From Candidatus Rifleibacteriota bacterium (lineage in GTDB: Bacteria > Muiribacteriota > Ozemobacteria > Ozemobacterales > Ozemobacteraceae): 64,000 bases of DNA. The notes beneath the pieces are model-generated. The model had not been told where the DNA came from, did not search any database, and saw only the letters and a program-made list of their open reading frames with translations. The position numbers and the translations under genes are program-made. Below, one piece after another: positions 29,108 to 47,900 of this stretch; the first letter of the stretch is position 1, and each line of letters begins with the position of its first letter. The stretch lies in contig JAAYVD010000050.1 of assembly GCA_012517355.1 (NCBI GenBank), positions 23,350 through 87,349 on the forward strand, given 5' to 3'.

Positions 29108-29563
29108 TGTCAGGCCCTCCTTTCCAGAATCGTTCACCGGAATCGATCACCCCTGTTGACCGCCACATCGCGAGAAAGGTTCCCGGAAAGTTCACGGCCT
29201 GCCGGAAACCCCCGGAAACCCCCGCCGCGTCTTTTCTGGAGACTTCAGCATTTCGACGGAAACCTCGAAAGCTGCAGGGGAAAGGGAGAAAGGGGGGAAA
29301 TGGCGAAGGGAGTCGCCAGCACGATCTGCGCAATCAGCATCGATGGGTGGATGAAGAACGTGGTTTCCCAGGCCCGAAAAGGGTTCCGGGGGCTCTGCCA
29401 GCGGTGAAATGAAGGGCAAAGCCCCTTCGGCAGGCATGGTCGGGGATCGACCTCTTTTTTCCCTTCCACCCCTGTGATAGAGTGTCCTCCGTCGGTCTCC
29501 GGCAGGGCCACCCCCACCGGAACCAGCGGTCACCAACCCGCATTCCACCTGGGAGGATCACCC

Positions 29564-32500
29564 ATGGCTCGTTCCTTCGCCGGTCACCCCCTGCGCCTGT
29601 TCCTCGTCGGCCTGATCGCCGTCCTGTCCGCTTTGTCCGTGATCGTCGGCTGCGGCGGGGGCGGCGGGGGCAACACCGATGCCTTCACCACCGGCGCGAC
29701 GGTCGCCCTCACCGGCCTCGTCACCCGCGAAGGCGCGACCACGTCGGTGCGCGGATCAGGAGCCATCCGGGGTTCCCCGGTGGCCGGGGCGGAGGTCTAC
29801 ATCCAGGAGGATCCTTTGCGCCGGAGCACCACCGACAGCGAGGGCCGCTACCGGTTGCTCGACCTCCCCGTCAGTCTCGCTCGCTTCAACGTGGTGGCCA
29901 GTTGGACCGAAGGCGGCACCGTCTGGAAGAACCGCACGCCGGTAACCAATACCGGGGTCAGTTCCGAACTGACCGGGGACGTGAAGGTCGAACAGGCCAC
30001 CGCCCGCGTGGAGGGCCGCCTGCTCGACGCCAACGGCAATCCCCTGGCGGAAGGCACCATCCTGACCCTGTGGGGCGAAATCTTCCGGGTCCTCACCGAC
30101 GGGCGGTTCGTTTCCCCGCCGCTCCCACCATCGGCCGCGACCGCCGAGATCACCTTCGCCGGAGACGCCGGCCAGGCCCCGGCCACCATGACCGCCCCGC
30201 TCACCACGGGTGACCTGCCCGCCATCATCGAAGTGCAGCTGGTCAGCCGCACCGCGCCGCCCAATGCCCCGCCGTCCGCTCTGCTCACCGCCAAAGTGAG
30301 CGGTCAGGAGGTCACCAAGGTGGCCCCCAAGGCCCAGGTCAGCCTGGCCCTGCAGGTGATCGACCCCGATCCCAACCACGCCACCCTCGCCACCAACGTC
30401 TGGACGAAGACCCGCGGCGAGCTCGCCCAGACCGCGAATGTCCTCACCAACACCTGGACCGCCCCCGACCTGCCGGGGCAGGCCACCATCACCGTCCGCG
30501 TCACCGACCCGCTCGGGGCCGTCGCCACCGCCCAGCTGCGGCTGGTGATCGAAGGCGCCTTGACCGCCACGAAGGAGATCACCGCCTTCCGCTTCCCCGC
30601 CGGCACCCTGAATTCCGGCCTCGCCACCGACGCCGTGGCCATCATCGGCGGCACCGCCATCCAGCTGCAGGTGCCCAACGGCGTGTCCCGCGTCGGGCTG
30701 ATCCCCGAGATCACGCACACCGGCATCGACGTCGTGCCGCGCTCCGGCATCGGCCAGGACTTCAGCCAGCCGGTCACCTACAAGGTCACCGCCGCCGACT
30801 GGTCGACGAAGGAATTCACCGTCACCGTCAACGAGGGTCCCGACACCACCGCCCCGGCCATCGTCACCCTCACGCCCGCGAACGGCGCCACCACGGCCGC
30901 CCTCGACGCCAACCTCGTCATCACCTTCAACGAGATCATCGCCAAGGGAACCGGCAACCTGGTCATCCGCCAGGCCAGTGACGGGGCCATCCTCGAAACC
31001 ATCGACGTCTCCGCGACCGAGGTGACCGTCAACGGCACCCAGGCCACCATCAACCCCGCCGTCACCTTCTCCCCCTCGGGGACCTACTACGTCGAACTGG
31101 CCCCGGGCGCGTTCAAGGACCTCGCCGGCAACCTGTTCACCGGCATCTCCGGAGCCACCACCTGGCGCTTCTCCACCCCGGCCCCGGCCGACACCACCGC
31201 CCCCACCATCGCCGCCCTCACCCCGGCCGACGACAGCGCCACCGCCGCCCCCGATGCCGACCTGGTCATCGTCTTCAGCGAGAACGTCCTGAAGGGAACC
31301 GGCGCCATCACCGTCCGGAACGACACCGACGGCACCACCCTCGAAACCATCGACGTCACCTCGACCCGCGTCACCATCCGAGACGCCCAGGTCACCATCG
31401 ACCTCTCCCAGACCCTGCTGCCTTCGAAGGCCTTCCACGTAGAGATCGCCGCCACCTGCTTCAAGGATGCCGTCGGCAACGCCTTCGCGGGCATCGCCGA
31501 CTCCACCACCTGGAACTTCTCCACCCCCGCCCCCGCCGACACCACTGCCCCCGCCGTGGCCTCCTTCACCCCGGCCTCCGGGTCGGTCAATGTGGGCGTC
31601 GAGACCAACCTCGCCATCACCTTCACCGAGAACGTCCTGCCCGGAACCGGCAACCTGGTCATCTTCGACGGCCCCACCGGCGCCGTCTTCGAGACCATCG
31701 CCGGCAATTCCGGCCAGGTGACCATCGCCGACCGCCTGGTCACCGTCAACCCCGCGGCCGTCTTCACCTTCGGCCGCCCCTACTACGTCACCATCGCCGC
31801 AGGCTTCGTCCAGGACGCCGCCGGCAACGCCTATCCGGGATACACCGCCACCACCACCTGGTCCTTCACCGCCGCCGCGGCCCCCGACACCACCGCCCCC
31901 ACCCTCCAGTCTCTCTCCCCGGCCGACAACGCCACCACCGTCGCCACCGACGCCAACCTCGTCCTCACCTTCACCGAGAGCGTCACGAAGAAGACCGGAA
32001 CCATCGTCATCCACGACGACACGGCCGGCACCGTCTTCGAGAACATCGACGTCACTTCCGGCCTGGTGACCGTGTCCGGGAACCTGGTCACCATCAATCC
32101 CGCCGGGGTCTTCACGGCGGGCCGCTCCTACCACGTGACCGTCGCCGCCACCTGCTTCGTCGACGCCGCCAACAACGCGTTCGCCGGCATCACCGACGCC
32201 ACCACCTGGAACTTCTCGGTGCCCGTGCCCCCCGACACCACCGCCCCCGCCGTGGCCTCCTTCAGCCCGGTCAACGGCGCCACCAACGTGGCGGTCGGTT
32301 CCGACCTCGTCGTCACCTTCAACGAGACCGTCGTGAAGGGAACCGGCAACATCCTGATCAGGAACGATACGGACGGCACCACCTTCGAGACCATCGACGT
32401 GGCCGGCGGCCTGGTGACGGTCTCCGGCGCCCAGGTCACCATCAACCCCGCGGGCACGCTCACCGCCAGCAAGACCTTCCACGTCGAGATCGCCGCCACC

Positions 32501-34963
32501 TGCTTCAAGGACGCCGCCAACAACGCCTTCCCCGGCTTCACCTCGGCCGCCGTCTGGTCCTTCGCGACGCCGGCCCCCACCGACACCACCCCGCCCACCG
32601 TCTCCGTCCTTTCCCCACCCGACGGCGCCACCACCGTGGCCACCGACGCCAACCTCGTCCTCACCTTCAGCGAGAACGTGGTGAAGGGAACCGGCAATCT
32701 CGTCATCAAAAACGATTCCGACGGCACCATCTTCGAGACCATCGACGTCACCTCCGGCCTCGTGACCGTGTCCGGCAACCAGGTCACCGTCAACCCCGCC
32801 GGCACCTTCGCCCCAAGCAAGAACTGGCACGTCGAGATCGCCGCCACCTGCTTCAAGGATGCCGCCAACAACGCGTTCGCCGGCATCACCGACGCCACCA
32901 CCTGGAACTTCTCGACCCCGGCCCCCGCCGACACCACCGCCCCCACGGTGACCGCGTTCTCCCCGCTCGACGGCGCCACCAGCGTGCCCGCCGGCACCAA
33001 CCTGGTCATCACCTTCAGCGAGAACGTCGTCAAGGGAACCGGCAACCTCGTCATCAGGAACGATTCCGACGGCACCACCTTCGAGACGATCGACGTGACC
33101 GCGGCCAACGTCACCGTCTCGGCCAACCAGGTGACGATCGACCCGGCCGGCACCCTCGGCAGCCTGAAGAACTACCACGTCGAGATCGCCGCCACCTGCT
33201 TCCGCGACGCCGCCGGCAACCCCTTCGCCGGCATCGCCAACGCCACCACCTGGAACTTCTCCTCGCGCGGCGAGATCGACCAGGCCGCCGACCTGCTGAT
33301 CACCGAAGTCAGCACGCGGTTCTACTCCAACGTGCCTCTGTTCATCGAGGTCTACAACGACACCGACGGGACCCTCCAGTTGGCCGACTATTCCCTGCGG
33401 TGCTGGTCCCTCCCCTCGGGTGGAGGCGTGCCCGCCCCCAGGACCTACACCCTGCCCTCCCTGTCCATCGCCCCCCGCACCTTCGCCCTCCTGGTCACCA
33501 ACGTCACCACCAACCAGTTCGCCACCTCCCGGTCGGTGCTGATCAACCCCACCGCCGACGGCTATCTGCCCTACTGGGCGGGCGACGGATTCGTCGAACT
33601 GGTCAAGGCCGGCCAGACCACCGACTTCGTCCGGTTCGGCACCAATTCCACCCCCCCGACCACCGGCACCTGGGGAACCAACGCCCCCGCCCTCGAGTCG
33701 GGCACCGACGGCGTCTACGGCAAATCCCTCCAGCGCGCCCGCAGCCTGGCCGACACCGACACCGGCACCGACTGGACCTTCCGCCAGTATGCCACCCCGG
33801 CCGGCCCCAACGACGTGCTCTCCGACACCGACCTCGACCTCGACGGCATCCCCGATTCCTGCGAAGCGCCCGGCCAGACCTACGTCGGCCTGCCCCTCTA
33901 CGACTGGGGCGCCCGCACCAACCAGAAGGACCTGTTCATCCACGTCGCCCACATGGATTCCACCGACCCCGGCGTCACGCCCCGCAAGGAAGCCCTGGCC
34001 AAGGTCGCCGCGGCGTTCGCCCCCCACGGCTTCGTCCTGCACTTCGATGCCGGCACCCTTTACGGGTCGACCCCGGCCGACTACAACCTCGACAACACCT
34101 CCCACCGGATCCCGCTGTCGACGAAGATGACCTTGAGCACCGTCACCGGCTCGGCCAATCTCTACGAGGTCAAGGCGCAATCCATCGACCTGGCCAAGCG
34201 GCACGTCTTCTATTTCTGCGTCTTCGCCTACGAGGAATACTACGGCGCCGCGGGCAAGGGCGAGGTCAACGGCAACGACTTCCTCGTCGCCCTCGGCAAC
34301 AACGGCCTGAAAACCACCCCGGGCGAGGACCTCACCTACCTGATCAACCAGCAGGCTTCGACCCTGATGCACGAGTTCGGCCACAATCTCGGCCTGCGCC
34401 ACGGCGGCGGAGAAGAGGTCAACTACAAGCCCAACTACCGGTCGATCATGAACTACCTCTACTCGAACTACGGCCTTCCCCAGATCGGTAACGTCCGCGA
34501 AGGAGATCGCTACTACCACGAAAAGTGGTATCTCGCCGGCTTCCCCCGCCCCGGCGCCTTCTCCCAGTATTTCCCCAGCGGCACCAAGGACCTCCACAAC
34601 AACCCCTGGAGCGCCTCGTTCACCATGGACTTCTCCGAAGGGAAGGGCGGCACCCTCAACGAGGCCAGCCTGAACGAGCCGGCCGGCCTGCTCTACCCGG
34701 GCAGCACGGGCGTCGACTGGAACGGCGACATGGTCACCACCTCGACCGGCCTCGCGCTGGACGTCAACTTCAGCAGCAACTCCATCGAGTCCTACGGCGA
34801 TTACAACGACTGGGCCAACCTCGCCATCGTCTTCGCCCGCAAGACCGCCGGGGTCTCGAACGCCCCGGGCGGCTCCGAGCCGCGCCCCTATGTGTTCGCC
34901 ATCGACGACTGCCAGGAGGTGGCCACCGAGACCCCGCGCCTCCTGCCCCACCAGATGCCCTGA
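29564..34963 (+). CDS. Large surface lipoprotein, about 1800 aa: about 8 tandem Ig-like (SbsA/Big_5-type) repeats, a lamin-tail domain (LTD) and a C-terminal metzincin zinc metalloprotease domain.
   Basis: ATG at 29564 is 7 nt after GGGAGG. Lipobox-like LSALSVIVGC followed by a poly-Gly stretch. Repeats of about 100 aa: DTTAPxVxSxSPxxGATxVxxDxNLVxTFSExVVKGTGNLVIRNDxDGTxFETIDVTS...NPAGTxxxxKxYHVEIAATCFKDAAxNAFAGI. LTD: LLITEVSTRFYSNVPLFIEVYNDTDGTLQLADYSL. Protease: HEFGHNLGLRHGG (HExxHxxGxxH) with a downstream SIMNY Met-turn. Confidence 0.8.
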   Translation: MARSFAGHPLRLFLVGLIAVLSALSVIVGCGGGGGGNTDAFTTGATVALTGLVTREGATTSVRGSGAIRGSPVAGAEVYIQEDPLRRSTTDSEGRYRLLDLPVSLARFNVVASWTEGGTVWKNRTPVTNTGVSSELTGDVKVEQATARVEGRLLDANGNPLAEGTILTLWGEIFRVLTDGRFVSPPLPPSAATAEITFAGDAGQAPATMTAPLTTGDLPAIIEVQLVSRTAPPNAPPSALLTAKVSGQEVTKVAPKAQVSLALQVIDPDPNHATLATNVWTKTRGELAQTANVLTNTWTAPDLPGQATITVRVTDPLGAVATAQLRLVIEGALTATKEITAFRFPAGTLNSGLATDAVAIIGGTAIQLQVPNGVSRVGLIPEITHTGIDVVPRSGIGQDFSQPVTYKVTAADWSTKEFTVTVNEGPDTTAPAIVTLTPANGATTAALDANLVITFNEIIAKGTGNLVIRQASDGAILETIDVSATEVTVNGTQATINPAVTFSPSGTYYVELAPGAFKDLAGNLFTGISGATTWRFSTPAPADTTAPTIAALTPADDSATAAPDADLVIVFSENVLKGTGAITVRNDTDGTTLETIDVTSTRVTIRDAQVTIDLSQTLLPSKAFHVEIAATCFKDAVGNAFAGIADSTTWNFSTPAPADTTAPAVASFTPASGSVNVGVETNLAITFTENVLPGTGNLVIFDGPTGAVFETIAGNSGQVTIADRLVTVNPAAVFTFGRPYYVTIAAGFVQDAAGNAYPGYTATTTWSFTAAAAPDTTAPTLQSLSPADNATTVATDANLVLTFTESVTKKTGTIVIHDDTAGTVFENIDVTSGLVTVSGNLVTINPAGVFTAGRSYHVTVAATCFVDAANNAFAGITDATTWNFSVPVPPDTTAPAVASFSPVNGATNVAVGSDLVVTFNETVVKGTGNILIRNDTDGTTFETIDVAGGLVTVSGAQVTINPAGTLTASKTFHVEIAATCFKDAANNAFPGFTSAAVWSFATPAPTDTTPPTVSVLSPPDGATTVATDANLVLTFSENVVKGTGNLVIKNDSDGTIFETIDVTSGLVTVSGNQVTVNPAGTFAPSKNWHVEIAATCFKDAANNAFAGITDATTWNFSTPAPADTTAPTVTAFSPLDGATSVPAGTNLVITFSENVVKGTGNLVIRNDSDGTTFETIDVTAANVTVSANQVTIDPAGTLGSLKNYHVEIAATCFRDAAGNPFAGIANATTWNFSSRGEIDQAADLLITEVSTRFYSNVPLFIEVYNDTDGTLQLADYSLRCWSLPSGGGVPAPRTYTLPSLSIAPRTFALLVTNVTTNQFATSRSVLINPTADGYLPYWAGDGFVELVKAGQTTDFVRFGTNSTPPTTGTWGTNAPALESGTDGVYGKSLQRARSLADTDTGTDWTFRQYATPAGPNDVLSDTDLDLDGIPDSCEAPGQTYVGLPLYDWGARTNQKDLFIHVAHMDSTDPGVTPRKEALAKVAAAFAPHGFVLHFDAGTLYGSTPADYNLDNTSHRIPLSTKMTLSTVTGSANLYEVKAQSIDLAKRHVFYFCVFAYEEYYGAAGKGEVNGNDFLVALGNNGLKTTPGEDLTYLINQQASTLMHEFGHNLGLRHGGGEEVNYKPNYRSIMNYLYSNYGLPQIGNVREGDRYYHEKWYLAGFPRPGAFSQYFPSGTKDLHNNPWSASFTMDFSEGKGGTLNEASLNEPAGLLYPGSTGVDWNGDMVTTSTGLALDVNFSSNSIESYGDYNDWANLAIVFARKTAGVSNAPGGSEPRPYVFAIDDCQEVATETPRLLPHQMP

Positions 34964-35235: not shown

Positions 35236-36201
35236 CTACCCCTTGGCTGTGGCGGAGGCGGAAGCGGGAGCGTTCTTCAGCGTGCCCTCGACGGAGCGAA
35301 CCGCCAGGTCGAGCAGCCGCTTGATCTCCGAGGCGCTGGTCTGGTAGCCGCCGTGCTTGTTGGCGAACTGCCGGATGACCAGGATGTTGACGTCCTTGTC
35401 GGTCTTGCGTTCGACGACGTCGCGATCGCCGGCCGCTGGCTGGAAGATCGGCAGCGACGGTCGGGTGATGACCACGAAGTAGAGATACGGCCCGCCGCGG
35501 TTGATGGCCACCTGGGCCTGCACGCCCAGCAGTTCCTTGGGGGCATCGGGTGGTTTGATCATCAGCTTGAGATCGGTCGGCACCTCTCCCTTGTCGGTCT
35601 TGGCCAGTTCGAGCTGGTATTCCCGGCTCCATTTCCCCAGGCCCAATGCGGGAAAACCGGCCAGCAGGGCTTCGAACACGGGCAGTTTGAACTCGACCAG
35701 GTGCGGTTTCCAGGTGTTCGGCGCACAGATCCAGAAATACCAGATGCCCAAAAAGACCAGGTCGAGGAAGGCCGTTCCCAGCATCTCTTCTGCGAAGGAA
35801 TTGCCCAGGCCGTCGGACAGGACCCCGACCGTGCCCATCCCCACCACGAAGACCAGCAGGCTGATCCCCAGGTTGAACAGGCCCCACAGGCAGCCGGAGC
35901 CGAGGTTGTCGATGACCTCAATCTTCTTCTTGATCCGGCCGACCTCGGTGGCCGTGACCTGCACCCAGCGCTTGCCCTCCTCGGCTTTCAGCTTCGGAGA
36001 GAGGTTCAGCCGGGGATCGGCTCCCCATCCCTGCGCGTAGCCGTACCAGAACCCCCCGGCGATGACGGCGAGGCCGAGCCAGGCCGACCACTGCATCTGC
36101 ACGAACAGGCCCCCCATCACCACGAGGGTGGGGATCACCACCTCGCGCAGGATGTCGCTTTCAGCGGCGGGGGCAACGGGAGCCGTCTTCGCAGCTTCCA
36201 T
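35236..36201 (-). CDS. Hypothetical polytopic membrane protein, 321 aa. Last gene of the rSAM/SPASM operon.
   Basis: ATG at 36201 is 6 nt after AAGGAGGG. Several TM helices (IPTLVVMGGLFV, LGLAVIAGGFWYGY, LFNLGISLLVFVVGMGTVGV, FLDLVFLGIWYFWI). Overlaps the 3' end of the rSAM gene by 41 nt, suggesting translational coupling. No recognisable family. Confidence 0.5.
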   Translation of the reverse strand: MEAAKTAPVAPAAESDILREVVIPTLVVMGGLFVQMQWSAWLGLAVIAGGFWYGYAQGWGADPRLNLSPKLKAEEGKRWVQVTATEVGRIKKKIEVIDNLGSGCLWGLFNLGISLLVFVVGMGTVGVLSDGLGNSFAEEMLGTAFLDLVFLGIWYFWICAPNTWKPHLVEFKLPVFEALLAGFPALGLGKWSREYQLELAKTDKGEVPTDLKLMIKPPDAPKELLGVQAQVAINRGGPYLYFVVITRPSLPIFQPAAGDRDVVERKTDKDVNILVIRQFANKHGGYQTSASEIKRLLDLAVRSVEGTLKNAPASASATAKG

Positions 36202-37626
36202 GGTTCCCTCCTTGGGATTCTCGGGAGGAATTTCGGGGACCCAAGACCAGATTCTCCGAAATTGGTCTTGTGTTCCCGAAATTCACGTCAGTCGCAGATT
36301 CCGGCTCGGCGGCCGGCGCCACCGGAGCCAGCTCGGCACACCCCATGGCGCGCCAGTAGAGGGGGCACGCCCCCTCGCACAGGTCGAAATGCCCGCAGGT
36401 CCGGCAGGCCGCCGGGGCCTCCTGCTTCTCACGGAGCCGCGTCGCCGACACCGAGTGCCACACCTCGGTGAACGGCTGTTCCAGCAGCGACCCCTGCGGT
36501 TCGAAGAAACTCGAGCAGGGAATCACCCGCCCCCGCGGATCGACGCTCAACAGTCCGTCACAGGCCGCGCACCCCTTGTTGCCGAGATTGTGGGCGATCG
36601 GGTTGAACAGGCAGTACGGCGTCGGCGAATACCACATGAACCGGATGCCGAGATCGCGGGCGACCGCCTTCACGCGCAGGACGGTCGGGCCGATCTCGCG
36701 GTAGGTCAGCAGCAGCCCTGGCTGGGCTTCCCGCATCCAGGCCGCCGGGATGACCATGTTCATCGAGAACCGGTCGAGGCCCAGGCTCCTGGCCAGGGCC
36801 GGCAGGCGGTCGGCGGCCGCCACGTTGAACCCGGTCAGCGTGGTGTTGGTATGCACCGGCAGTCCCGCCGCCAGGCAGGCCTGCACGGCCGCCACCGTCG
36901 CCGCGAACGACCCCGGCACCCCGGTCAGGCCGTCGTGGATGGCCGCTTCCGGGCCCTCCAGGCTGATCTGCGCCGAGTCGAGGCCGGCCGCCACCAGGGC
37001 GGCCACCAGCGCGGGGGTCAGCCGCAACCCGTTGCTGATCAGGTTGACCCGCAACCCCAGCCGCACCCCCTCCGCGACCAGTTCGGGCAGGTCGTCGCGC
37101 AGGGTCGGCTCCCCGCCGGTGAACGAGACCGACGGCACCTGCGCCTCGTGCCGGATGATCTGGAGCACCCGCTTCACCTCGGCGGTGGTCATCTGGATGG
37201 CGGTGTCCCCGTCCCGGTGCTGGCCGGCGTAGCAGAACCGGCAGGCCAGGTTGCACCGGTAGGTCAGGGCCACCTCGGAAATGATCGGCAGCTTGATGTA
37301 GGGCCGTCGGTAGGGAATGGCCTCGACCTCCGGCCGGCCCCGGCCTTCCCCCAGGCATCCCTTCACCATCGCCACGATGCCGGTGAAAAACTGGAACAGG
37401 TCCCGCCGGACGTGCGGCGGCGGCTGCCGCCCGCCCAGGGCCTGGTCGAGCGTGCGACCGTCGAGCAGGGCCCGCATCAGCTTCATGCCGCTGCGATTCA
37501 GTTTGTACGATTGGTTGGGAACCAGGATCAACAATTCGTCATACTCCCGCAGGAAGACGAAAGACTTGATCTCGCCGATGAACCGGTCGACCCAGTCGAG
37601 GGGAAACTCCTGCTCAGGCGTGGGCA
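36161..37626 (-). CDS. Radical SAM/SPASM-domain maturase with an N-terminal PqqD-like RiPP-recognition element (RRE), 488 aa.
   Basis: N-terminal FVFLREYDELLILVPNQSYKLNRSGMKLMRALLDGRTLDQAL...VRRDLFQFFTGIVAMV matches the PqqD/RRE pattern. Radical SAM LTYRCNLACRFCYAG with FTGGEPTL. SPASM region CAACDGLLSVDPRGRVIPCSSFF...CRTCGHFDLCEGACP. Start ATG at 37626. Confidence 0.85.
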
Positions 37627-37816
37627 TACCCCCACCCGCCTGGCCTGGACGACCTGGCCCGGAGGCCCCGACCGCCCCGAAGTCATCGGAAAGGCCCGCT
37701 TCGGCGCCCGCGCCCGTGATGGTCGCTGCCGTCGAAGCCTCTGCGGCAGGCCGGTCAGCGGAAGCGGCGCAACCCTCCTCCATCTGTGGCCGCTCGCAGC
37801 CCGGCTTGGCTGCCGG

Positions 37817-37945
37817 GGAATTCCGGGGACATGATACCGAATTCCAGGAATTCCGGGGACATGATACCGAACTTCCTGAATTCGATATCATGTCCCCGGA
37901 ATGCTCGGAATGCCCGGAATGCTTGGGGCCCCCATCGGGCCTGTG
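37817..37945. repeat. Lower-GC intergenic repeat cluster: a 25-bp direct repeat x2 (GGAATTCCGGGGACATGATACCGAA), a 17-bp-arm inverted repeat (ATTCCGGGGACATGATA ... TATCATGTCCCCGGAAT) and a 3x GGAATGC tandem. Lies between the Cys/His-repeat coding end and the rSAM/SPASM gene.
   Basis: Read directly at 37817-37841 and 37848-37872 (direct repeats), 37850-37866 versus 37888-37904 (inverted repeat, about 21-nt loop), and 37895-37930 (GGAATGC repeats). Local GC is clearly below the window average. Confidence 0.7.
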
Positions 37946-38109
37946 CGTCACACCCGCCTGGCGGCGGGCGGGACCGGTTTCGCCGACCGGCGCCGTATCG
38001 CCCAGGCCCGGCCCTTCGCCACCGGCCGGTTCGCGGGCGAGGGATGTCGTCGGACCCCTGATCGGCTCCCCCGGCCGTTGTCCGGCAGGGATTTCCGGCG
38101 ACTGTTCGC

Positions 38110-38280
38110 TCACCGGGCCCTCCCCGACACGCAGGCGCTGTGGCACGCGCTGTGGCAGGCACTGTGACAGGCGCTGTGGCACGCGCTGTGACACGCGCTG
38201 TGACAGGCGTCGTGGCAGGCGGTGTGCACGTAGCAGGCCGCGTGGCAGGCATCCGACTTGACCAGGTCGCCCAGGCTCAT
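38110..38280 (-). other. Candidate precursor-like segment (internal Met at 38280): MSLGDLVKSD followed by ten C-H-x-A repeats (ACHAACYVHTACHDACHSACHSACHSACHSACHSACHSACVSGRAR). It is the C-terminal tail of CDS 38110..39954 in the same frame.
   Basis: 12-bp tandem DNA repeat (GCSTGYCACAGY, about 8 units) at 38140-38250 on the minus strand. 10 Cys and 9 His in 40 residues. Lies immediately upstream (in the direction of transcription) of the RRE-rSAM/SPASM gene. Whether it is translated separately is not determinable from sequence. Confidence 0.35.
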
Positions 38281-39954
38281 CGTCTGCTCGACCCCGCTCA
38301 CCTGGCCGATGGTGGGCTCGAGCTCGCCGACGCGGTCGTCGAACCGGTTCCCCGGGACGGTCGCGAGCGGGCCCGGGCCGGGCCGGCCGTGCAGATGGGA
38401 ATGCTGGTGGTGATGATACCAGGACGAAACGTACGACCGCCGGTAGTACCGCCGCCGGTAGACCGGGTAGCCCGACTCGTCGACGGTTTCGGCCGGTTCC
38501 GGCTCCTGCGCGGCCCGGGCAAACTCGGCCCGGTAGTGGGCCTTGGTGGCCTCCGCGTCGCAGTCCCACATCTTGGTCTGGATCGAGTCGACCAGCTTGT
38601 AGAAGATCGCCTTGGCCGTCTCGGGCAGGATCGACCCGTCGTCACCCACCGACTGGATCAGGAGGTTCTCGTAAGGGTCCTCGCTGGTGGGGTGGGGCGT
38701 GAGGAACTTGACGCGGACGGGCTGGGTCGAGGTGATCGACAGCACCCCGTTCTGCTCGAGGCTGGCCAGGATGCACGCCAGCAGCCGCGTGACGGGGTAG
38801 TCGAGCAGCATCATCGCCTCGAGCACCGTCAGCTCGGCCACCTTCCCGTTCTTGCGGAAGCTGGCCACCTGGATCTTCGGCGGCTCCCAGTTTTCCCCCT
38901 CCCACGACAGGTCGGGCACCTTGGCCACCTCGGCCGTCGCCGTGCGCCGTTTGAACCGCAGCAGGAGCAGGGTCAGGCCCATGAACCCGCCCATCACCAG
39001 GAACAGCAGGACCTTCTGCCCGCCGGGCCGGGCGGCCCCGGTCTCCCCGGCCTTCGCCCCATACGACCGGTCGGGCAACGGGCTCTTCTTCCCCGGAACC
39101 GGCCCCGGGCGGCTTTCTTCGGCCTTGAACGTGAAGCCGGTGAACACCTTCCGCGGAAAATACTGCTGAACGCGGATCGCCTCCTGTGAGGGGACGTTCT
39201 CGCGGTGCAGCAGCTGGGTCAGCCAGAACTTCCCGCCGTCACCGCGCTGGCCGCGGTAATCGATCTTGTACGTCGTGTTCATGAACGGCTCGGTCTGGAT
39301 GGTCTGCCGCCATTTCTCCGCATCGATCGCAGCGCCTGAGACTTCCAGAGGCAGGTGCAGGTACACGGTTCGGTGCTCGAGCGGCTCGTCCCAGGCGGGG
39401 TCGGCCCAGTTGAGATAGACCAGTTCCGACTTGTCCTTTTCGGAGCGGGTAATGCCGAGATGCCCCGAGGCCAGCAGGTTGACGGTGTAGGTCAGCACCC
39501 AGGTGGCGGTCTCGCCGGCCGGAATGCGCGCCCCGACCACGTCGACCGCCCACAGGTTGCCCTGCTGCACCACCTTGACCGGCTGGCTGTCCCGGTTCTG
39601 CCGCAGCACCAGGCACTTGTCGGCCTCGAACACCGGGGTGCCAGCCACCCCCATGTAGTCGAGCCCGCCCATGCTCTCGCTTTGAACCGACACCCGGATC
39701 TTGGTCACCACGATGGCATGCCCGTTCCCGGTCAGCGACAGGTCGGTCTCGATCCATTGGAAGTCCACGCGCGGCGCGGCCGCCAGCGACCCGCTGCCCG
39801 CCACCGCCAGGACGAGGGTGAGGGCCGCCAGGACGAGCAGACCGCGCACCCCACCCGGAGCCCGGATCGGCGGGGATGCCCATCGGGCCGAAACCGGCCC
39901 GGCAGACCGGAGCACGCGGGGATCTCCCGCGACGACGGAAACAGGGTGACCCAT
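38110..39954 (-). CDS. DUF2207-like membrane protein (signal/TM, extracytoplasmic beta-rich domain, single TM, cytoplasmic domain) with a Tyr/Arg/His-rich segment and a C-terminal (C-H-x-A)x10 repeat tail, 614 aa.
   Basis: ATG at 39954 is 7 nt after GGGAGG (...EVHMGHPVSVV). Hydrophobic leader VRGLLVLAALTLVLAVAG. Central TM VLLFLVMGGFMGLTLLLL. Tail ...YRRRYYRRSYVSSWYHHHQHSHLHG...MSLGDLVKSDACHAAC...HSACHSAC. The DUF2207 assignment rests on architecture only. Confidence 0.55.
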   Translation of the reverse strand: MGHPVSVVAGDPRVLRSAGPVSARWASPPIRAPGGVRGLLVLAALTLVLAVAGSGSLAAAPRVDFQWIETDLSLTGNGHAIVVTKIRVSVQSESMGGLDYMGVAGTPVFEADKCLVLRQNRDSQPVKVVQQGNLWAVDVVGARIPAGETATWVLTYTVNLLASGHLGITRSEKDKSELVYLNWADPAWDEPLEHRTVYLHLPLEVSGAAIDAEKWRQTIQTEPFMNTTYKIDYRGQRGDGGKFWLTQLLHRENVPSQEAIRVQQYFPRKVFTGFTFKAEESRPGPVPGKKSPLPDRSYGAKAGETGAARPGGQKVLLFLVMGGFMGLTLLLLRFKRRTATAEVAKVPDLSWEGENWEPPKIQVASFRKNGKVAELTVLEAMMLLDYPVTRLLACILASLEQNGVLSITSTQPVRVKFLTPHPTSEDPYENLLIQSVGDDGSILPETAKAIFYKLVDSIQTKMWDCDAEATKAHYRAEFARAAQEPEPAETVDESGYPVYRRRYYRRSYVSSWYHHHQHSHLHGRPGPGPLATVPGNRFDDRVGELEPTIGQVSGVEQTMSLGDLVKSDACHAACYVHTACHDACHSACHSACHSACHSACHSACHSACVSGRAR

Positions 39955-40112
39955 GTGAACCTCCCAGGCTGCGCTCCCCCCCAGTCCCGACCGCGGACCG
40001 TGGAAGGCCGATCGGTCGGGAACGGCTGCCGACCGGGACGGAACCGGCCGACGGGGAACGGTGGCGACGGGCATCGCCGCCCCCTTCACCAGGGGCGGCG
40101 GGGGCGGGAATC

Positions 40113-40505
40113 CTACTCGGCCTTGTTGCTCTCGATGCGGGCCCTGATGAGGTCGGCCTGCGAGGAGATGAACTGGGCGAAGTCGCCCTTGGCGGTGGCC
40201 CAGGCGGGTTCGGCGGGGAAGGTCAGGGCGACCGCCTCCCACAAGTGGGTGTAGACCTTCTCGAGCACCTGTCGCGAATCACCGCCACCGGTGTGCTCGA
40301 AGAACGCCTTGATGGCCACCGGCCGGAAGACCGGCGACGGGGTGTTGGGAATTTCGGTGCTGGCCCCGAGAAACTGCACCTTCATCTCCCCGAACATGTC
40401 GCACCGCTCTTTGATCGCGGTGAGCACCGTGGCGATGGAAAAATCCGCCGAACTGAAGGAGACGGTCAGCAGGTTGTCCTTGATTTCTCCAAATGGCAAA
40501 AACAT
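40113..40505 (-). CDS. Hypothetical protein, 130 aa, first gene of the 40.5-35.2 kb minus-strand gene string.
   Basis: ATG at 40505 is 7 nt after GGGGAGGA. Product MFLPFGEIKDNLLTVSFSSADFSIATVLTAIKERCDMFGEMKVQFLGAST... has no recognisable family. Its stop overlaps the preferred start region of the DUF2207-like gene. Confidence 0.4.
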   Translation of the reverse strand: MFLPFGEIKDNLLTVSFSSADFSIATVLTAIKERCDMFGEMKVQFLGASTEIPNTPSPVFRPVAIKAFFEHTGGGDSRQVLEKVYTHLWEAVALTFPAEPAWATAKGDFAQFISSQADLIRARIESNKAE

Positions 40506-41922: not shown

Positions 41923-44900
41923 GTGGGACTTTTCCTGTTTGTTCCCTTAGCCCCCCTGGTCGCCCTCAATCAATTGTCCCAACCCGCTTTCGACGCGAAC
42001 GGCACCTGGACCTGGGACAACAACATCACCCGGGGAGCTCTCGACACATTTACCAGGAATGCCGGAGGAGGATACTCGGACGCGATTCTCACCTCCAATA
42101 ACACCAGGCGCGATGGCATGCTCCACCAGATCTTCACGACGCCGGCCGCCGGGCCCGTCAACGCCAGGGTGAGAGCGGGTTACCAGACCACCAATACCGC
42201 CGGCTATACCAGTTTCAGCCTGTTGGGAACCGTTCGGGACACCACCTCCGGTGCCTACCCCAACGAAGGGTTGGTCCTCACTTTTCTGAACCGTTCCACC
42301 CTCAATGTCACCGGATGGCAGGCCTCCGGATGGTCCACGGAAAGCCAACTGTCCGCAGGCCGGTCCTACCGGGTCCAGATCTACCACGACATCAATGTGA
42401 CCGGTTTCAACACCAATGTCACGGCCAATATCGATAACGTCTACTGCAACACCAGCCCGGTGAACCTGCGAGCCTCCCGCAGCGGAGCCGATATCGTCCT
42501 GAACTGGGACACCAGCACCGGCGTGGGAACCCTCGCCAATTACCGGGTTTACTACAGCACCACCGGGGTGGCCGGCTCTTTCGTCTGGCTTGCCAACGTG
42601 CCCGCCGGCACCACCAACTACACCCACGTCTCCCCCGGGACGTTATACTATTACGCCGTATCCGACGTAGAAACCGTCACCGGCGACGAATCCCCCCTCT
42701 CCGTGGCGGTCCTTCCCCCCAACATCACCATGGCCGGCGCCAAGAACGTGAACGAGGACACCGACTCGGCCGCGATCACCGACTTCAACTGCACCGGCAG
42801 CGCCGTCTGCTACCCGGTGACCATCGTCCTCACCGTCAGCAACGGCACCCTGACCATGACGAACAACGGGTGCACCACGTTTTCCAACAACGGCACTTCC
42901 CAGGTCACCATCGCAGGGTCCCTGACCGCCCTCAACAATACCCTTGACACCCTCATCTACCGGGGATCCCTGAACTTCTACGGCTCGGACAACCTGAACG
43001 TGAACTTTTCGGGCATCGACATGGGGAACGTGGCCATCACCGTCACGCCGGTCAATGACGCCCCCTCGTTCACCAAGGGGGCCGACCAGACCGCCGAAGA
43101 GAACTCCGGGGCAAAAACCGTGGCCGGATGGGCCACCGCCCTGTCCACCGGGCCGGCCAACGAGTCGTCCCAGTCCATCGCCGGGTTCGTGGTGACCAAC
43201 GACAACAACGCCCTCTTCTCGACCCAGCCCGCCGTCGCCGCCGATGGCACCCTCACCTTCACCCCGGCGGCCTCCGCCAATGGAACCGCCATCGTCACCG
43301 TCCAGGTCCAGGACAACGGAGGGACGGCCAATGGCGGGGTGAACACTTCCGCCGCCCAGACGTTCAGCATCGTCATCTACCACGTGAACAGGGAGCCCTC
43401 CTTCACGAAGGGGGCCGATCAGGTGGTCGCCGAGGATGCCGGCCTCCAGACGGTGGTCGGATGGGCCACCAGCCTGAACCCCGGCCACCCCAGCGAGGGA
43501 GGCCAGGTGCTCGATTTCCTGGTGTCCAACGACAACAACGCCCTGTTCTCCAGCCAACCGGCCATCGCCGCCAACGGCACCCTCACGTTCACCCCCGCCG
43601 CCAACGCGGCCGGGGTCGCTGTCGTCACCGTCCAACTCCACGACAACGGCGGCACCGCCAACGGAGGCGATGATACCTCCCCCGCCCAGACGTTCACCAT
43701 CACCGTGACGGCGGTGAACGATGCCCCCACGATCACCGTTCCCGCCCCCCAATCCGTCTTCAAGAACGGCTCCCTGACCCTGTCCACCGGGAACGGGAAC
43801 CTCATCACCATCGCCGACCCCGATGCCGGCGGCAACCAGATCCAGGTCGGCCTGTCGGTTTCCCAGGGAAAGCTGAAACTCAACGGCACCGGGGGCCTGA
43901 CCATCACCGCGGGCGGCGATGATACCGCCGCCATGACCATCCGAGGAACTCTGGGGAACCTCCAGGCCGCCCTGGATGGCCTCGTCTACACCCCTTCCAC
44001 CGGCTTCACGGGAGCCGACACCCTCGCCGTCCTGCTCGACGACCTCGGCAGCACAGGATCCGGTGGCCCCCTGACCGACAGCGATTCGGTGAGCCTGACC
44101 GTGCTGGTGCCCCCCAACACCGCCCCTCCCACCGGCCTGGAGGCCCTGCCCTCGGGAGGAGGCATCTACCTCGGATGGAACCCCAGTCCTCCCGAGAACG
44201 GCGCTACCGTCGTCAGCTACCTGCTGTACCGCAATCTCACCCCCAACGATCCGGCCGGGGCCACCCTGATCCAGACGCTGCCCGCCGGAACCACCAGCAC
44301 CACCGACACCTGGTTCGGTGACCCCCACTACTACTTCATCCGCGACCTCGATTCGAACGGGCAGACGTCCCCCTACTCCAGCCAGGTGTCGGTCGCCCAG
44401 GCCTTTCCCGTCTACGACGGCTTGCGCGAGGACCTCGACTTTTCCTGGAACCCGGACCGGGTGGAAGTGAACTGGGTCCATCCCAACGTCGACTTCAGCG
44501 GCTACCGCGTGGCGGTGGGCACCACCCCCGGCTCCACCAACGTCCTCGACTGGACGCCGGTCGGCACCACCGACCATGCCACGTTGGCGGTCTCCCCACC
44601 CCTGGCCTCCGGTACGACGTATTTCACCTCGGTCCAGTTGATCGACCCCCTCGGCAACCTTTCGACCCTCTCGACCTCCAACGGATTCACGGTCAGGGGT
44701 GACCAGATCCTGATCGACACTTCGAACACCGGGTATTTCAAGTATGCGCGGGCCCTGGTCAACCTCGATACGACCACCGACCCTGGCTCCCTCCGGCCCA
44801 AGACCTTCGCCGGAGGAGGGCTGTGGCAGTACCGGGTCAAGGTGACCGTGAAAGAACCGGGAGTCACCGCCCGCCTCAACGCCCCCTGCCACGTGACGTT

Positions 44901-47900
44901 CACCATCCCAGCCGGGCAGCAACCAGCCAGTGTCAACGAGTTCCGGGTGACCGACGAATCGGGGACGGAGATCCCGAGATACAACCTGACCGCACCGGCA
45001 GGTGTGGTCAGCACCGTGGCCACGCCCCATCTCGTGTTCCTGGTGAACCTGGGCAAGTCCGAAATCAGGAACTACTGGATCTACTGGGGAAACACCGGGG
45101 CCCCCAACCCCGGATACGGTTTCAGCGCCACCGCCTCCCTCACCTCGCGCACGGAGTGGACCCCGTACTATTCGCGAAAGCTGATGGAGCCCGGCATGGA
45201 GCCGATCACCATTTCCGCCGGCAACAACTTCGCCCTCAACGCCGGGGTCGATTTCCAGCGTGCCGCCGCCCCCGACAACATCCGGAACGCCAACGACGAC
45301 TGCTGGAGCGACCCGTTCAACCTCCCCTGGAACTTCTTCTTCTTCGGCACGAACGTCCAGAACAACTGGAAGGTGGACTCCAACGGCAACCTGTATCAGA
45401 ACAGCGTCGACAGCGGACAATGGGTCAACACCTGGGCCCGCTTCACCGGGGCGACCTGTTTCACGGCGGGACTGATCACCCCGGCCTGGCTCGACTACCG
45501 CTACAACAACGCCCCGTATCCCCCGAACCCAGGTTGCTATGGGAAGATCGAAACCTTCACCAACCCTGACCGCAAGGCCTTCACCTGGCGGGTGAACCGG
45601 TACTCCCTGACCGACGACATCTACCTTCACCAGGCCGTGGTCTACAGTACCGGTGACATCGCCCTTCGGTATGACCTCCTGAGCTACCGCGGCTGCTGGG
45701 ACACCGCCGGAGGCACCGACAACGAGGTGAACCTGGTCAACTTCACGGTCGGCATCAGCAACAACATCGGCAACTGGCTGCGCAGCACTCCCCTGACCGA
45801 GGGTATCGGGCTCACCCCGAGCTCCTTCTTCCAGTGCATGGACGCCTTCCGCAATTCCTACACGGTGGGTCCCATCGAAGGACCCACCGGGGCCTTCGCC
45901 AACCGGGGGAGCATCGAGTCCATCGTCTTCGATTCCCGATCCACCACCCCCCTGTGGGTCAGCCTCGACTACGAAACGGCCCCCACCGCCAACGGGCAGC
46001 TGGTGTTCTCCGTTCGGACAGGGGACACGTACGACCAGGCCGCCACGGGCACCTGGACCCTCCTCACGACGGTCACCAACGCCTCCCCCAACGGTTCGGT
46101 GCCCATTCCCGCCGGCATCGCCGGCAAACGGTATCTGCAATACCAGTGCGTCTTCCAGGGGAACACCGCGGCCGCGGCGCCGGTGCTGAACGAAGTGCGC
46201 CTGGTCTGCCGGGCGTTGAGCGTCGAAACGGTCACCGCCAGCACCTCGACAGGGGTCAGCCAGGGCCAGGACGGCATCCAGGTCGGAGTGACCTTCCGTA
46301 ACCACCACAACGCCGACATCACCATTCTCCCGGCCAACGCCACCCTTACCTTCTCTCTCGGCAGCTACACGGTGAGCGCCCCGGTGCTGGAGAACGGCGG
46401 GGTCGTGCCGCCCGGGGGTTCCATCACCGGCACATTCACCGTCAACGTCCTGGACGACTCGCCCACCGGGTCGGCCACCATCGACTGCATGGCCACCGGC
46501 ACGGCCGGAGCCCTCACCTTCGGCGACCGGGACGCCCAGAATCCCCATGTCTGGCGGGTTCTCAAGAAGGCCAAGATGGTGATCAGTTCCACCGACACCT
46601 CTCCCCCCACGGTGACCAAGGGCCAGGAATCCATCCCGGTCCGGGTCGCCATCCGCAACGACGGGGAAGCCCCCTTTACCCTCGATTCTGCCTCCCTGAC
46701 TTTCCCCCTCGGTCATTATCTCATCACCTACGGGACACCCCCCTTCGGAACCGTCGTCCCAGGCGGCACCGGCATCACCGCCGAATTCTCCGTCACCATC
46801 CTGGTGACCAGCCCCTCGGGAGTCTCCCTGATCAACGCCTTCGCCTCCGGGACCAACACCTTTTCGGGAAAATCGGTCGAGGCGACCGGATCCCTGGTCC
46901 TCGATTCCTGGATCATCCAGAACGAAGCCGCGCTGATCCTGACCGAAATCCTGGCCTCGCCCACGGTCTACCGCGGCCAGGCCAATGCTCCGGTCCTGCT
47001 CAAAACCGTGAACGAGGGCGAAGCCGCAGGGGTCTGGGCGAGTTCGGTGGTCGATTTCACCCCGATCGACCTCCCGCCCCGCACGTATCTCTCGAAAACC
47101 CCCGTCAGCAGTTTCCCCGTCACCATCCAGGGCGGCGGGGGATTCCACGTCGCCCGGTATGCCATCACCGTCTCCCCTTCCTCGGCGACCGGAACCGACG
47201 ACATCGAACCCACCATCCATTACACCGACAACAACGTGAAGGTGGAGGTCACCTATTCCTCCCCCTACTCCCTGGCCAGCTGGACGGTGGTGTCGCAATT
47301 GATCGGCACATACAAGGACGCGGCCTTCCAGTTCCCCTCATCGAGTTTCAACCAGCCCCTGAGCGGCACTCGCACGGTCCATGCCCGCGGCACGAACATG
47401 GACGGATTCACCGACTACGTGGTGCGCTGGTTTGATCCCGGCAACCAGGAAGTGGCTTCGAGCCCCGTCCTGACCGGTGACGCGTCGGGAACGCTTTCCC
47501 ATTCCTACGACCTCACCCCTGTCTCCCCGCCCGGCGGGTGGGTGGTCAAGGTCACCGACCCCCTCAACACCTACACCGCCTGCCAGACCCTGTTCGACGT
47601 GGTCAGCCCGGCCAGCCTTTCGGCCCGGGTTTCCCTGCCGCCCTCGGTCTCGGTGGGGCAGCCGTTCCCCCTCCTCATGACCTTCGCCAATGCCGGCGGG
47701 GCCATCATCAACGGCGCCTATCCCAGCCCCCTGCAGATATCGGGGGCGGGTTCCGCGGTGGTGGCCTCAGGCCCCACCCCGGTCGTCCAGGCGGTGGGAG
47801 GGTATGGGCAAGCAACCTTCACCTGGGGCCTGGTGGCGGTGGCCCCGGGCACCTTCACCGCCAGCGCCACGGGCTACGGCTTCGACGCCAACTCGGACGA

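Follow-up and report, generated by a model that had tools for sequence, protein, structure and literature searches.

The 64,000-nucleotide (nt) stretch of Candidatus Rifleibacteriota DNA analyzed here (contig JAAYVD010000050.1, positions 23,350 to 87,349; "the window" in the following) contains a 12-nt tandem repeat that encodes the Cys- and His-rich C-terminal tail of a 614-amino-acid (aa) single-pass membrane protein. What looks to the eye like a regular coding repeat, and could be taken for a variable microsatellite prone to slippage, is a protein-level repeat under purifying selection and among the most constrained peptide segments of its protein. The analysis ties the window to a large family in which nearly every membrane protein with a Cys-His repeat tail has, downstream of it, a radical S-adenosylmethionine (SAM)/SPASM gene of its own. 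We consider it probable that the invariant cytoplasmic tail, (Ala-Cys-His-x)n-Ala-Cys-Val-Ser-Gly, is the tethered substrate of this downstream enzyme and is turned into a modified array of fixed length. Biochemistry is offered concrete handles by the A-C-H unit, which is invariant, by a unit count that prefers about 10, and by a conserved motif that directly precedes the array.

A coding repeat at the end of a membrane protein

Tandem Repeats Finder calls a period-12 array at window positions 38131 to 38226, with 8.0 copies, 83% matches, and a score of 122, and also a 36-nt period with 87% matches. The identity of the array with itself at an offset of 12 (73 of 96 positions) is the highest value of the entire 64 kb (mean, 32.3; standard deviation, 5.7; binomial P, 2.6e-17), and a degenerate C-H-x-A-C-H-x-A-C pattern has six overlapping matches at the array and none elsewhere in the window, where shuffled sequences give an expectation of 0. 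The coding strand of the array is the minus strand, inside an open reading frame (ORF) that spans 38110 to 40242. GC content at third codon positions in this frame is 0.85 to 0.97 from about 39950 downward, and public gene calls start the gene at 39954, yielding the 614-aa product. The assignment of 38110 to 39954 (minus strand) as the gene of a single-pass membrane protein rests on these features together with the AlphaFold2 (AF2) model, the PF09972 matches of relatives, and the 239 relatives detected with HMMER, all described below.

Read codon by codon, the end of the protein is TMSLGDLVKSD-ACHA-ACYVHT-ACHD-(ACHS)x6-ACVS-GRAR, followed by the stop codon. An earlier note, made from this DNA alone, had placed the repeat at 38140 to 38250, which is essentially right: the repeat call, the codon table, and the family unit profile delimit the Cys/His array, from ACHA to ACVS, as 38125 to 38250 (minus strand), a stretch of 42 residues that includes 10 Cys and 9 His, eight of the Cys in strict period 4 and two further upstream. 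The codon table also bears out the description of the units as coding on the minus strand for HSAC six times over with alternating synonymous codons, as the six exact A-C-H-S units that follow one another at 38137 to 38208 (minus strand), defined from the codon table and the unit sequences, vary solely at third positions (GCC/GCG, TGT/TGC, and AGC/AGT). About eight near-perfect 12-bp units had been described; the number agrees with the 8.0 copies called here, but "near-perfect" is too strong, since the longest exact self-match of the array at offset 12 is 14 nt. At offset 36 it is 23 nt. In the Logan assembly of the same sequencing run (ERR1876141), the whole tail gene, repeat included, is recovered with 0 mismatches to the window in 2,784 nt.

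The structural model places the array behind two folded domains. Computed from a 40-sequence alignment, the AF2 model has predicted local distance difference test scores above 90 for both domains and below 50 for the tail; it comprises a beta-sandwich N-domain (residues 62 to 267), a transmembrane (TM) helix (314 to 344), a cytoplasmic domain of helical/winged character (377 to 483), and the low-confidence, peptide-like tail. The protein is thus organized as a signal or anchor helix, a periplasmic beta-sandwich, the TM helix, the helical/winged domain in the cytoplasm, and a variable linker that leads into the Cys-His tail. As a KRR sequence follows the single TM helix, we infer from the positive-inside rule that the C-terminal half of the protein, including the tail, is cytoplasmic. 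In a fold search of the PDB, the N-domain resembles the beta-sandwiches of Ost1/ribophorin and of the M1-aminopeptidase N-domain and is best described as a generic beta-sandwich.

Relatives provide a link to the DUF2207 proteins. The N-domain of that family, PF09972, is matched by 11 of 40 family members at an E value of 0.01 or lower (best, 1.3e-5), with the relative P0003 scoring 24.1 bits against a cut-off of 24.4; the window protein itself has no PF09972 match. DUF2207 proteins share with it a signal or anchor segment, an extracytoplasmic beta-sandwich N-domain, a TM segment, and a C-terminal low-complexity tail. To our knowledge, neither a Cys-His tail nor a partnership with a radical SAM enzyme is a known feature of DUF2207.

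The wider family was collected in several ways. An exhaustive HMMER search with the 614-aa protein gave 239 relatives, and at least 424 stretches were confirmed in a metagenome scan, from which 80 loci were retained on a ranking by their similarity to the window protein. A scan of species-representative genomes identified the orthologue of Candidatus Ozemobacter sibiricus BY5 (L001; 74% identity overall) and a truncated orthologue in another metagenome-assembled genome of the Ozemobacteraceae, and a word-index protein search had as its sole match an Ozemobacteraceae protein without its C-terminus (P0001). Source names in the family include Ozemobacteraceae, Pseudomonadota, Stahlbacteria, and Spirochaetia. 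Across 538 family units, Cys is present in 100%, His in 97.4%, and Ala in 99.1%, and the variable position is occupied by Ser (74%), Asp (18%), Asn (3%), or Gly (3%). Of 74 tails, 63 have CVSG as their final unit, usually with G-[AS]-[HR] to follow, and almost all invariant columns of a 13-sequence family alignment fall in the tail. The tail is therefore the most conserved part of a large, multiphylum family related to DUF2207.

Conservation extends to the residues directly before the array, where a motif, [YF]xxF[ILMV]xS[DES]A, is found across the family; its counterpart in the window is SLGDLVKSDA (38251 to 38283, minus strand). Many family members have, in addition, an extra CF/YxGCF pair between this pretail motif and the array.

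Two other readings of the Cys and His motifs were considered and rejected. A heme-c reading as CX3CH is incompatible with a tail predicted to be cytoplasmic (a single TM helix, then KRR) and with motifs that overlap each other, and the sequence does not fit the formylglycine motif of the anaerobic sulfatase-maturating enzyme type (C/S-x-P/A-x-R).

The tail as a probable substrate of the adjacent radical SAM/SPASM enzyme

A gene for a 488-aa radical SAM/SPASM enzyme (36161 to 37627, minus strand; PF04055, 1.1e-26; PF13186, 3.9e-8), which we presume to be the tail maturase, lies 483 nt downstream of the tail gene on the same strand. The enzyme has a canonical CX3CX2C motif and a full SPASM motif, CX2CX5CX3C. 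Against the NCBIfam profiles it reaches no equivalog at cut-off, the best being AhbD with 127 bits versus 500, and its closest solved structures are PqqE, SkfB, and SuiB, which all modify peptides or are PqqE-like. Its N-terminal region of about 110 aa, a candidate PqqD-like (RRE-like) domain, is conserved among orthologues, and 7 of 10 orthologue N-termini have subthreshold PqqD matches (E values of 5e-4 to 0.2, all below 23.4 bits); the N-terminus of the window enzyme has no PqqD match.

The tail gene and the enzyme gene are linked across the family. Among 75 nonredundant related loci with at least 300 nt of downstream sequence, an orthologous radical SAM/SPASM gene (38 to 59% identical) directly follows the tail gene in 73, with a median gap of 21 nt. 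The earlier note regarded the tail as a plausible soft-metal binding module independently of any assignment to the ribosomally synthesized and posttranslationally modified peptides (RiPPs). Metal binding by the Cys/His tail is indeed plausible from its composition, yet this near-obligate linkage means that a role as enzyme substrate is better supported than one in metal binding independent of the RiPP idea. The most likely role of the tail would be that of a tethered substrate of the adjacent enzyme.

It can be envisaged that a putative PqqD-like domain at its N-terminus brings the radical SAM enzyme onto the pretail motif, which is a candidate recognition sequence for that domain, and that the enzyme then modifies the A-C-H-x units one after another in a processive manner. 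By analogy with characterized systems, the chemistry would most likely be Cys centered, such as thioether cross-linking of the sacti- or ranthipeptide type. The resulting modified Cys/His array, of fixed length, would sit on the inner membrane face and might go on to bind metal.

Similar target tails have been flagged by database curators, and the locus appears, from its sequence and gene order, to be a further case of such Cxxx-repeat radical SAM targets. Three relatives, P0002 (48% identical and in the same cassette), P0041, and P0052, have precomputed matches to PF27846, named tSAM_targ_Cxxx_rpt. The sole NCBIfam model that touches the window tail is TIGR04117 (14.1 to 15 bits; E value, 0.02 to 0.04), a narrow "paralog" model with a curated cut-off of 50 bits, against which P0002 scores 18.7 bits. 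The PF27846/TIGR04117 targets ("Syntroph_Cxxx") likewise have a C-terminal Cys at every fourth residue and are encoded beside a radical SAM enzyme. The window tail differs from these targets in its stricter unit, A-C-H-[SDNG], its fixed ACVSG end, and its position on a DUF2207-like membrane protein of about 600 aa, and the partner enzyme fits no NCBIfam equivalog.

Two further systems may be compared. The ACGX-repeat system of the TIGR04340 radical SAM enzyme, whose partner peptide family we take to be the ACGX-repeat peptide, shares with the window an Ala-Cys-x-x four-residue repeat and a radical SAM/SPASM enzyme. The window enzyme matches TIGR04340 at 7.3e-18 with 64.9 bits, far under the 400-bit cut-off, and so is not a member; moreover, the third position of the unit is His and not Gly, and the candidate substrate is not a small peptide but a large membrane protein. 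The best characterized precedent for a radical SAM enzyme acting along a period-4 Cys repeat is PapB, a radical SAM/SPASM enzyme that installs one thioether per unit in the six tandem Cys-X3-Asp/Glu motifs of PapA to give freyrasin (PMC9413430). In PapA, the Asp/Glu acceptor is at position +4, whereas in the window array +4 is the next Cys and Asp is found only at +2, in 18% of units. PapA is also a short, leader-bearing peptide, and the candidate substrate in the window is the tail of a membrane protein. On both counts, the chemistry of PapB is not transferable, and neither NCBIfam profiles nor structure comparison place the window enzyme with PapB at the sequence level. Our literature searches returned no paper or experimental work on the system described here.

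Several points weigh against the tail being the substrate of the adjacent enzyme, or against its uniformity. The chemistry envisaged for the tail is drawn wholly from analogy. On TIGR04117, the window protein scores under the cut-off (14 to 15 versus 50 bits), and it has no Pfam match on record. Co-transcription of the two genes is not assured in the window, where a repeat-rich spacer of about 480 nt separates them. Two related loci, L080 and L087, keep the full tail with no radical SAM gene within 4.6 to 6 kb downstream, so that either the enzyme is encoded elsewhere in these genomes or the tail can function unmodified. As for uniformity, the ranking of the 80 metagenomic loci by similarity may inflate it: among the HMMER representatives, which are less biased, Cys counts run from 3 to 18, although they still center on 9 to 11. 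The comparisons of copy number described below cover assembled sequences.

Of the alternatives, one is that the tail itself binds soft metals or Fe-S species, in storage, sensing, or delivery at the membrane, and that the radical SAM enzyme acts elsewhere or uses the tail as a donor of clusters or metal. The density of ligands, with an invariant CH dipeptide among the 10 Cys and 9 His, would suit such a role, as would a cytoplasmic tail that is predicted to be flexible and a fixed number of sites (about 10 Cys), which fits a defined metal stoichiometry. The retention of the tail in L080 and L087 points in the same direction. An unmodified metal-binding tail is, however, difficult to reconcile with an orthologous radical SAM/SPASM gene at such short distance in nearly every locus, with a putative PqqD-like peptide-recognition domain on that enzyme and a conserved, leader-like motif just before the array, and with the naming of the family as a radical SAM target by curators. 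Metal-storage tails such as those of Hpn, SlyD, and HypB are of biased composition and have poor positional conservation. The Ala of the window family, invariant at 99%, is not explained by metal ligation, and the window tail has no sequence family match among Cys/His metal-binding tails (Hpn-, SlyD-, HypB-tail-, and metallothionein-like). We consider a tail that serves unmodified as a metal ligand unlikely.

It could be speculated, as a tentative possibility, that the cassette is a widespread posttranslational system in which a radical SAM enzyme matures the cytoplasmic tail of a DUF2207-like membrane protein, the resulting covalently modified Cys/His ladder of fixed length (about 10 units) serving as a multimetal or redox device at the membrane in anaerobes. 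The DUF2207-like protein, which ends in (A-C-H-x)~9-ACVSG, would then belong together with a radical SAM/SPASM enzyme dedicated to it and with a membrane protein of about 300 aa; the target of maturation would be the tail of an integral membrane protein and not a secreted peptide, and the strict unit count would reflect a defined stoichiometry.

Peptide and length of the tail are conserved while synonymous sites diverge

The comparison with Ca. Ozemobacter sibiricus exemplifies how selection acts on the repeat. The last 57 residues (38113 to 38283, minus strand; TMSLGDLVKSD with the pretail motif, the array, and GRAR) are identical between the two species, including the six ACHS units. At the DNA level, these 57 codons have 0 nonsynonymous differences and synonymous ones at 22 of 56 degenerate codons (39%), close to the synonymous difference of the gene body (37.5%), and amino acid change is distributed very unevenly between the tail and the rest of the protein (Fisher P, 1.7e-7). 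The 70 residues upstream of the conserved tail, by comparison, are strongly diverged and carry in-frame indels of +8 and -4 aa. The DNA distance between orthologous units of the two species (1.33 nt) is about that between paralogous units (1.4 to 1.5 nt), from which it follows that synonymous sites have been randomized and that the units do not undergo concerted evolution. The synonymous scrambling of the units means that selection acts on the peptide, and the alternation of codons that is so conspicuous in the window is a signature of this constraint.

Length is constrained as well. Among 111 family sequences compared pairwise, all 24 pairs with at least 90% identity in the body of the protein have equal Cys counts and tail lengths, and within four clusters at 90% identity the bodies differ by up to 41 residues and the tails by 0, with identical tail lengths. 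The first difference in copy number appears at 89% identity, and steps of one unit (4 aa) occur around 74%. Of 86 distinct tails, 73 have 9 to 11 Cys in total; the mode is 10, and the counts range from 3 to 18. The number of units is thus kept near 10 Cys by stabilizing selection, so that both the peptide and its length are selected, and gain or loss of units is rare, occurring at species-to-genus divergence and deeper.

These results bear directly on the proposal in the earlier note that the array is likely a length-variable coding microsatellite in which slipped-strand mispairing could shift the number of units between strains and so tune the number of Cys/His sites. Some features of the array would be expected of such a tract: there are eight tandem 12-nt units, the 23-nt exact match at offset 36 could permit rare slippage by three units, and family members with 74 to 89% identity do differ by whole units. 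DNA-identical units are, moreover, in excess at lag 2 (26 versus 13.4 expected) and lag 3 (18 versus 9.2) in 78 nonredundant tails, which hints at old block duplications of two or three units (24 to 36 nt) or at an ancestral alternation of Ser and Asp. In the same 78 tails, adjacent units with the same peptide are DNA identical in only 13 of 356 cases (3.7%), in line with the 14.4 expected after codon shuffling. Synonymous scrambling has broken up any long perfect tract of the kind that slippage requires, the longest at offset 12 being 14 nt in the window, with a family median of 11 nt. The sister species retains the same copy number at 74% protein identity despite 39% synonymous difference, none of the 24 close pairs has changed, units do not evolve in concert, and total Cys is tightly grouped at 9 to 11. 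Coding repeats of contingency loci, in which slipped strands vary length or phase, resemble the array in having short tandem coding units with a length that is a multiple of 3; they differ from it in that the array is without a long perfect tract, copy differences among close relatives, and concerted evolution. We regard a slippage-prone, strain-variable repeat as very improbable. What survives of that proposal is the gain or loss of whole units, as 4-aa differences at 74 to 89% body identity and over deep time, not between strains or populations and not as a tuning of site number.

The two independent assemblies of run ERR1876141 agree on the tail gene, copy number included, and the neighboring proteins are unchanged on the ENA contig ERZ928041 k127_82725 (239,675 bp) and on the Logan contigs of the run. 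Exact-protein look-ups with neighboring genes led to the same population and to one 904-nt contig of SRR21707648 that ends before the tail. A word-index search with the C-terminal 274 aa gave no closer relative than the ones described above, and hence no variants of the window lineage at strain level.

The most repetitive tail DNA of the set is that of L080 and L087, with exact offset-12 matches of 29 and 27 nt.

The remaining alternative is that a small gene of its own encodes the tail, as the precursor peptide of a classical leader-plus-core RiPP, starting at the in-frame ATG of MSLGDLVKSD (38278 to 38280, minus strand) and overlapping the end of the large ORF. In its favor are this Met at ORF residue 655 (numbered from 40242), the 56-aa Cys-rich peptide that it would begin, and the start of perfect conservation one residue before it in both Ozemobacter species. 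The alternative is scarcely credible, since the frame is kept through the +8 and -4 aa linker indels between the two species, as in one continuous ORF, nearly all other family members lack the Met (reading, e.g., NYSTFITSDA or SYASFIRSDA there), neither species has a conserved Shine-Dalgarno-like sequence upstream, and a leader of 11 aa would be unusually short. No conserved internal start was found across the tail family, and in place of the short stand-alone precursor with a cleavable leader that is a hallmark of sacti- and ranthipeptides, the array ends a 614-aa membrane protein.

A noncoding repeat in the spacer differs between assemblies

A length difference at this locus is seen instead in a noncoding repeat, a 261-nt unit of the spacer that separates the tail gene from the radical SAM gene. 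The window carries a single hybrid copy of the unit (37817 to 38108, no strand assigned), recognized from the comparison of assemblies and from its direct and inverted repeats. The same population's ENA MEGAHIT contig (L007:8398-8920) has 2.0 tandem copies of it, 96% identical, right after the stop codon of the tail gene, and the Logan contig breaks inside it at 37817. All other positions compared outside the unit are identical (8,396 and 3,253 nt). The difference in copies could be a real deletion or duplication polymorphism or an assembly collapse.

Most related loci have nearly no spacer at this position. The part of the window spacer at 37817 to 37926 contains 30-nt direct repeats (GGAATTCCGGGGACATGATACCGAA...), three 9-nt-spaced repeats of CCGGAATGC, and inverted repeats of 31 to 34 nt built on CCGGGGACATGATA and TATCATGTCCCCGG. 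It is conceivable that these bind a regulator, form a terminator-like structure, or constitute a small mobile element. The equivalent spacer position of Ca. Ozemobacter sibiricus (L001:11826-12459) is occupied by two small overlapping ORFs of 101 and 113 aa, which by eye we take to resemble a toxin-antitoxin pair of the nucleotidyltransferase/HEPN (MNT/HepT) type.

Other genes of the cassette and its surroundings

The third gene of the cassette (35236 to 36201, minus strand), identified as an ORF, encodes a polytopic membrane protein of 321 aa, and a homologue is present in 45 of the 49 loci with enough downstream sequence. It overlaps the radical SAM gene by 41 nt (36161 to 36201), which suggests translational coupling. 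Upstream of the tail gene, a 130-aa protein is encoded at 40113 to 40505 (minus strand). It is 85% identical in Ca. Ozemobacter sibiricus and is found upstream in 14 of 64 loci, so that only some lineages have its gene linked with the cassette. Neither the 321-aa nor the 130-aa protein has a Pfam or NCBIfam match.

Other neighbors vary between lineages. A Peptidase_M50B gene (site-2-protease-like, with HExxH) lies just upstream only in loci of the Ozemobacter lineage (L001:8573-9364 and L003:7253-7996) and has no counterpart at this place in the window; processing of the membrane protein by its product is conceivable in those species. In the two loci without an adjacent radical SAM gene (L080:4036-5644 and L087:5989-7596), the downstream region encodes an S-methyltransferase/MTHFR fusion (MetH/MTHFR-like) and Nuo-like subunits, and the upstream region encodes a Rex-like regulator together with a PAS protein that resembles an Fe-only hydrogenase.

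In the window, the cassette is flanked by genes for two giant, secreted-looking proteins on the plus strand. The first (29474 to 34963; 1,829 aa) has seven Big_5 Ig-like domains, CopC-like and lamin-tail matches, and a C-terminal metalloprotease-like region, and the second (41923 to 52584; 3,553 aa) has faint fn3, cadherin-like, and MG2 matches.

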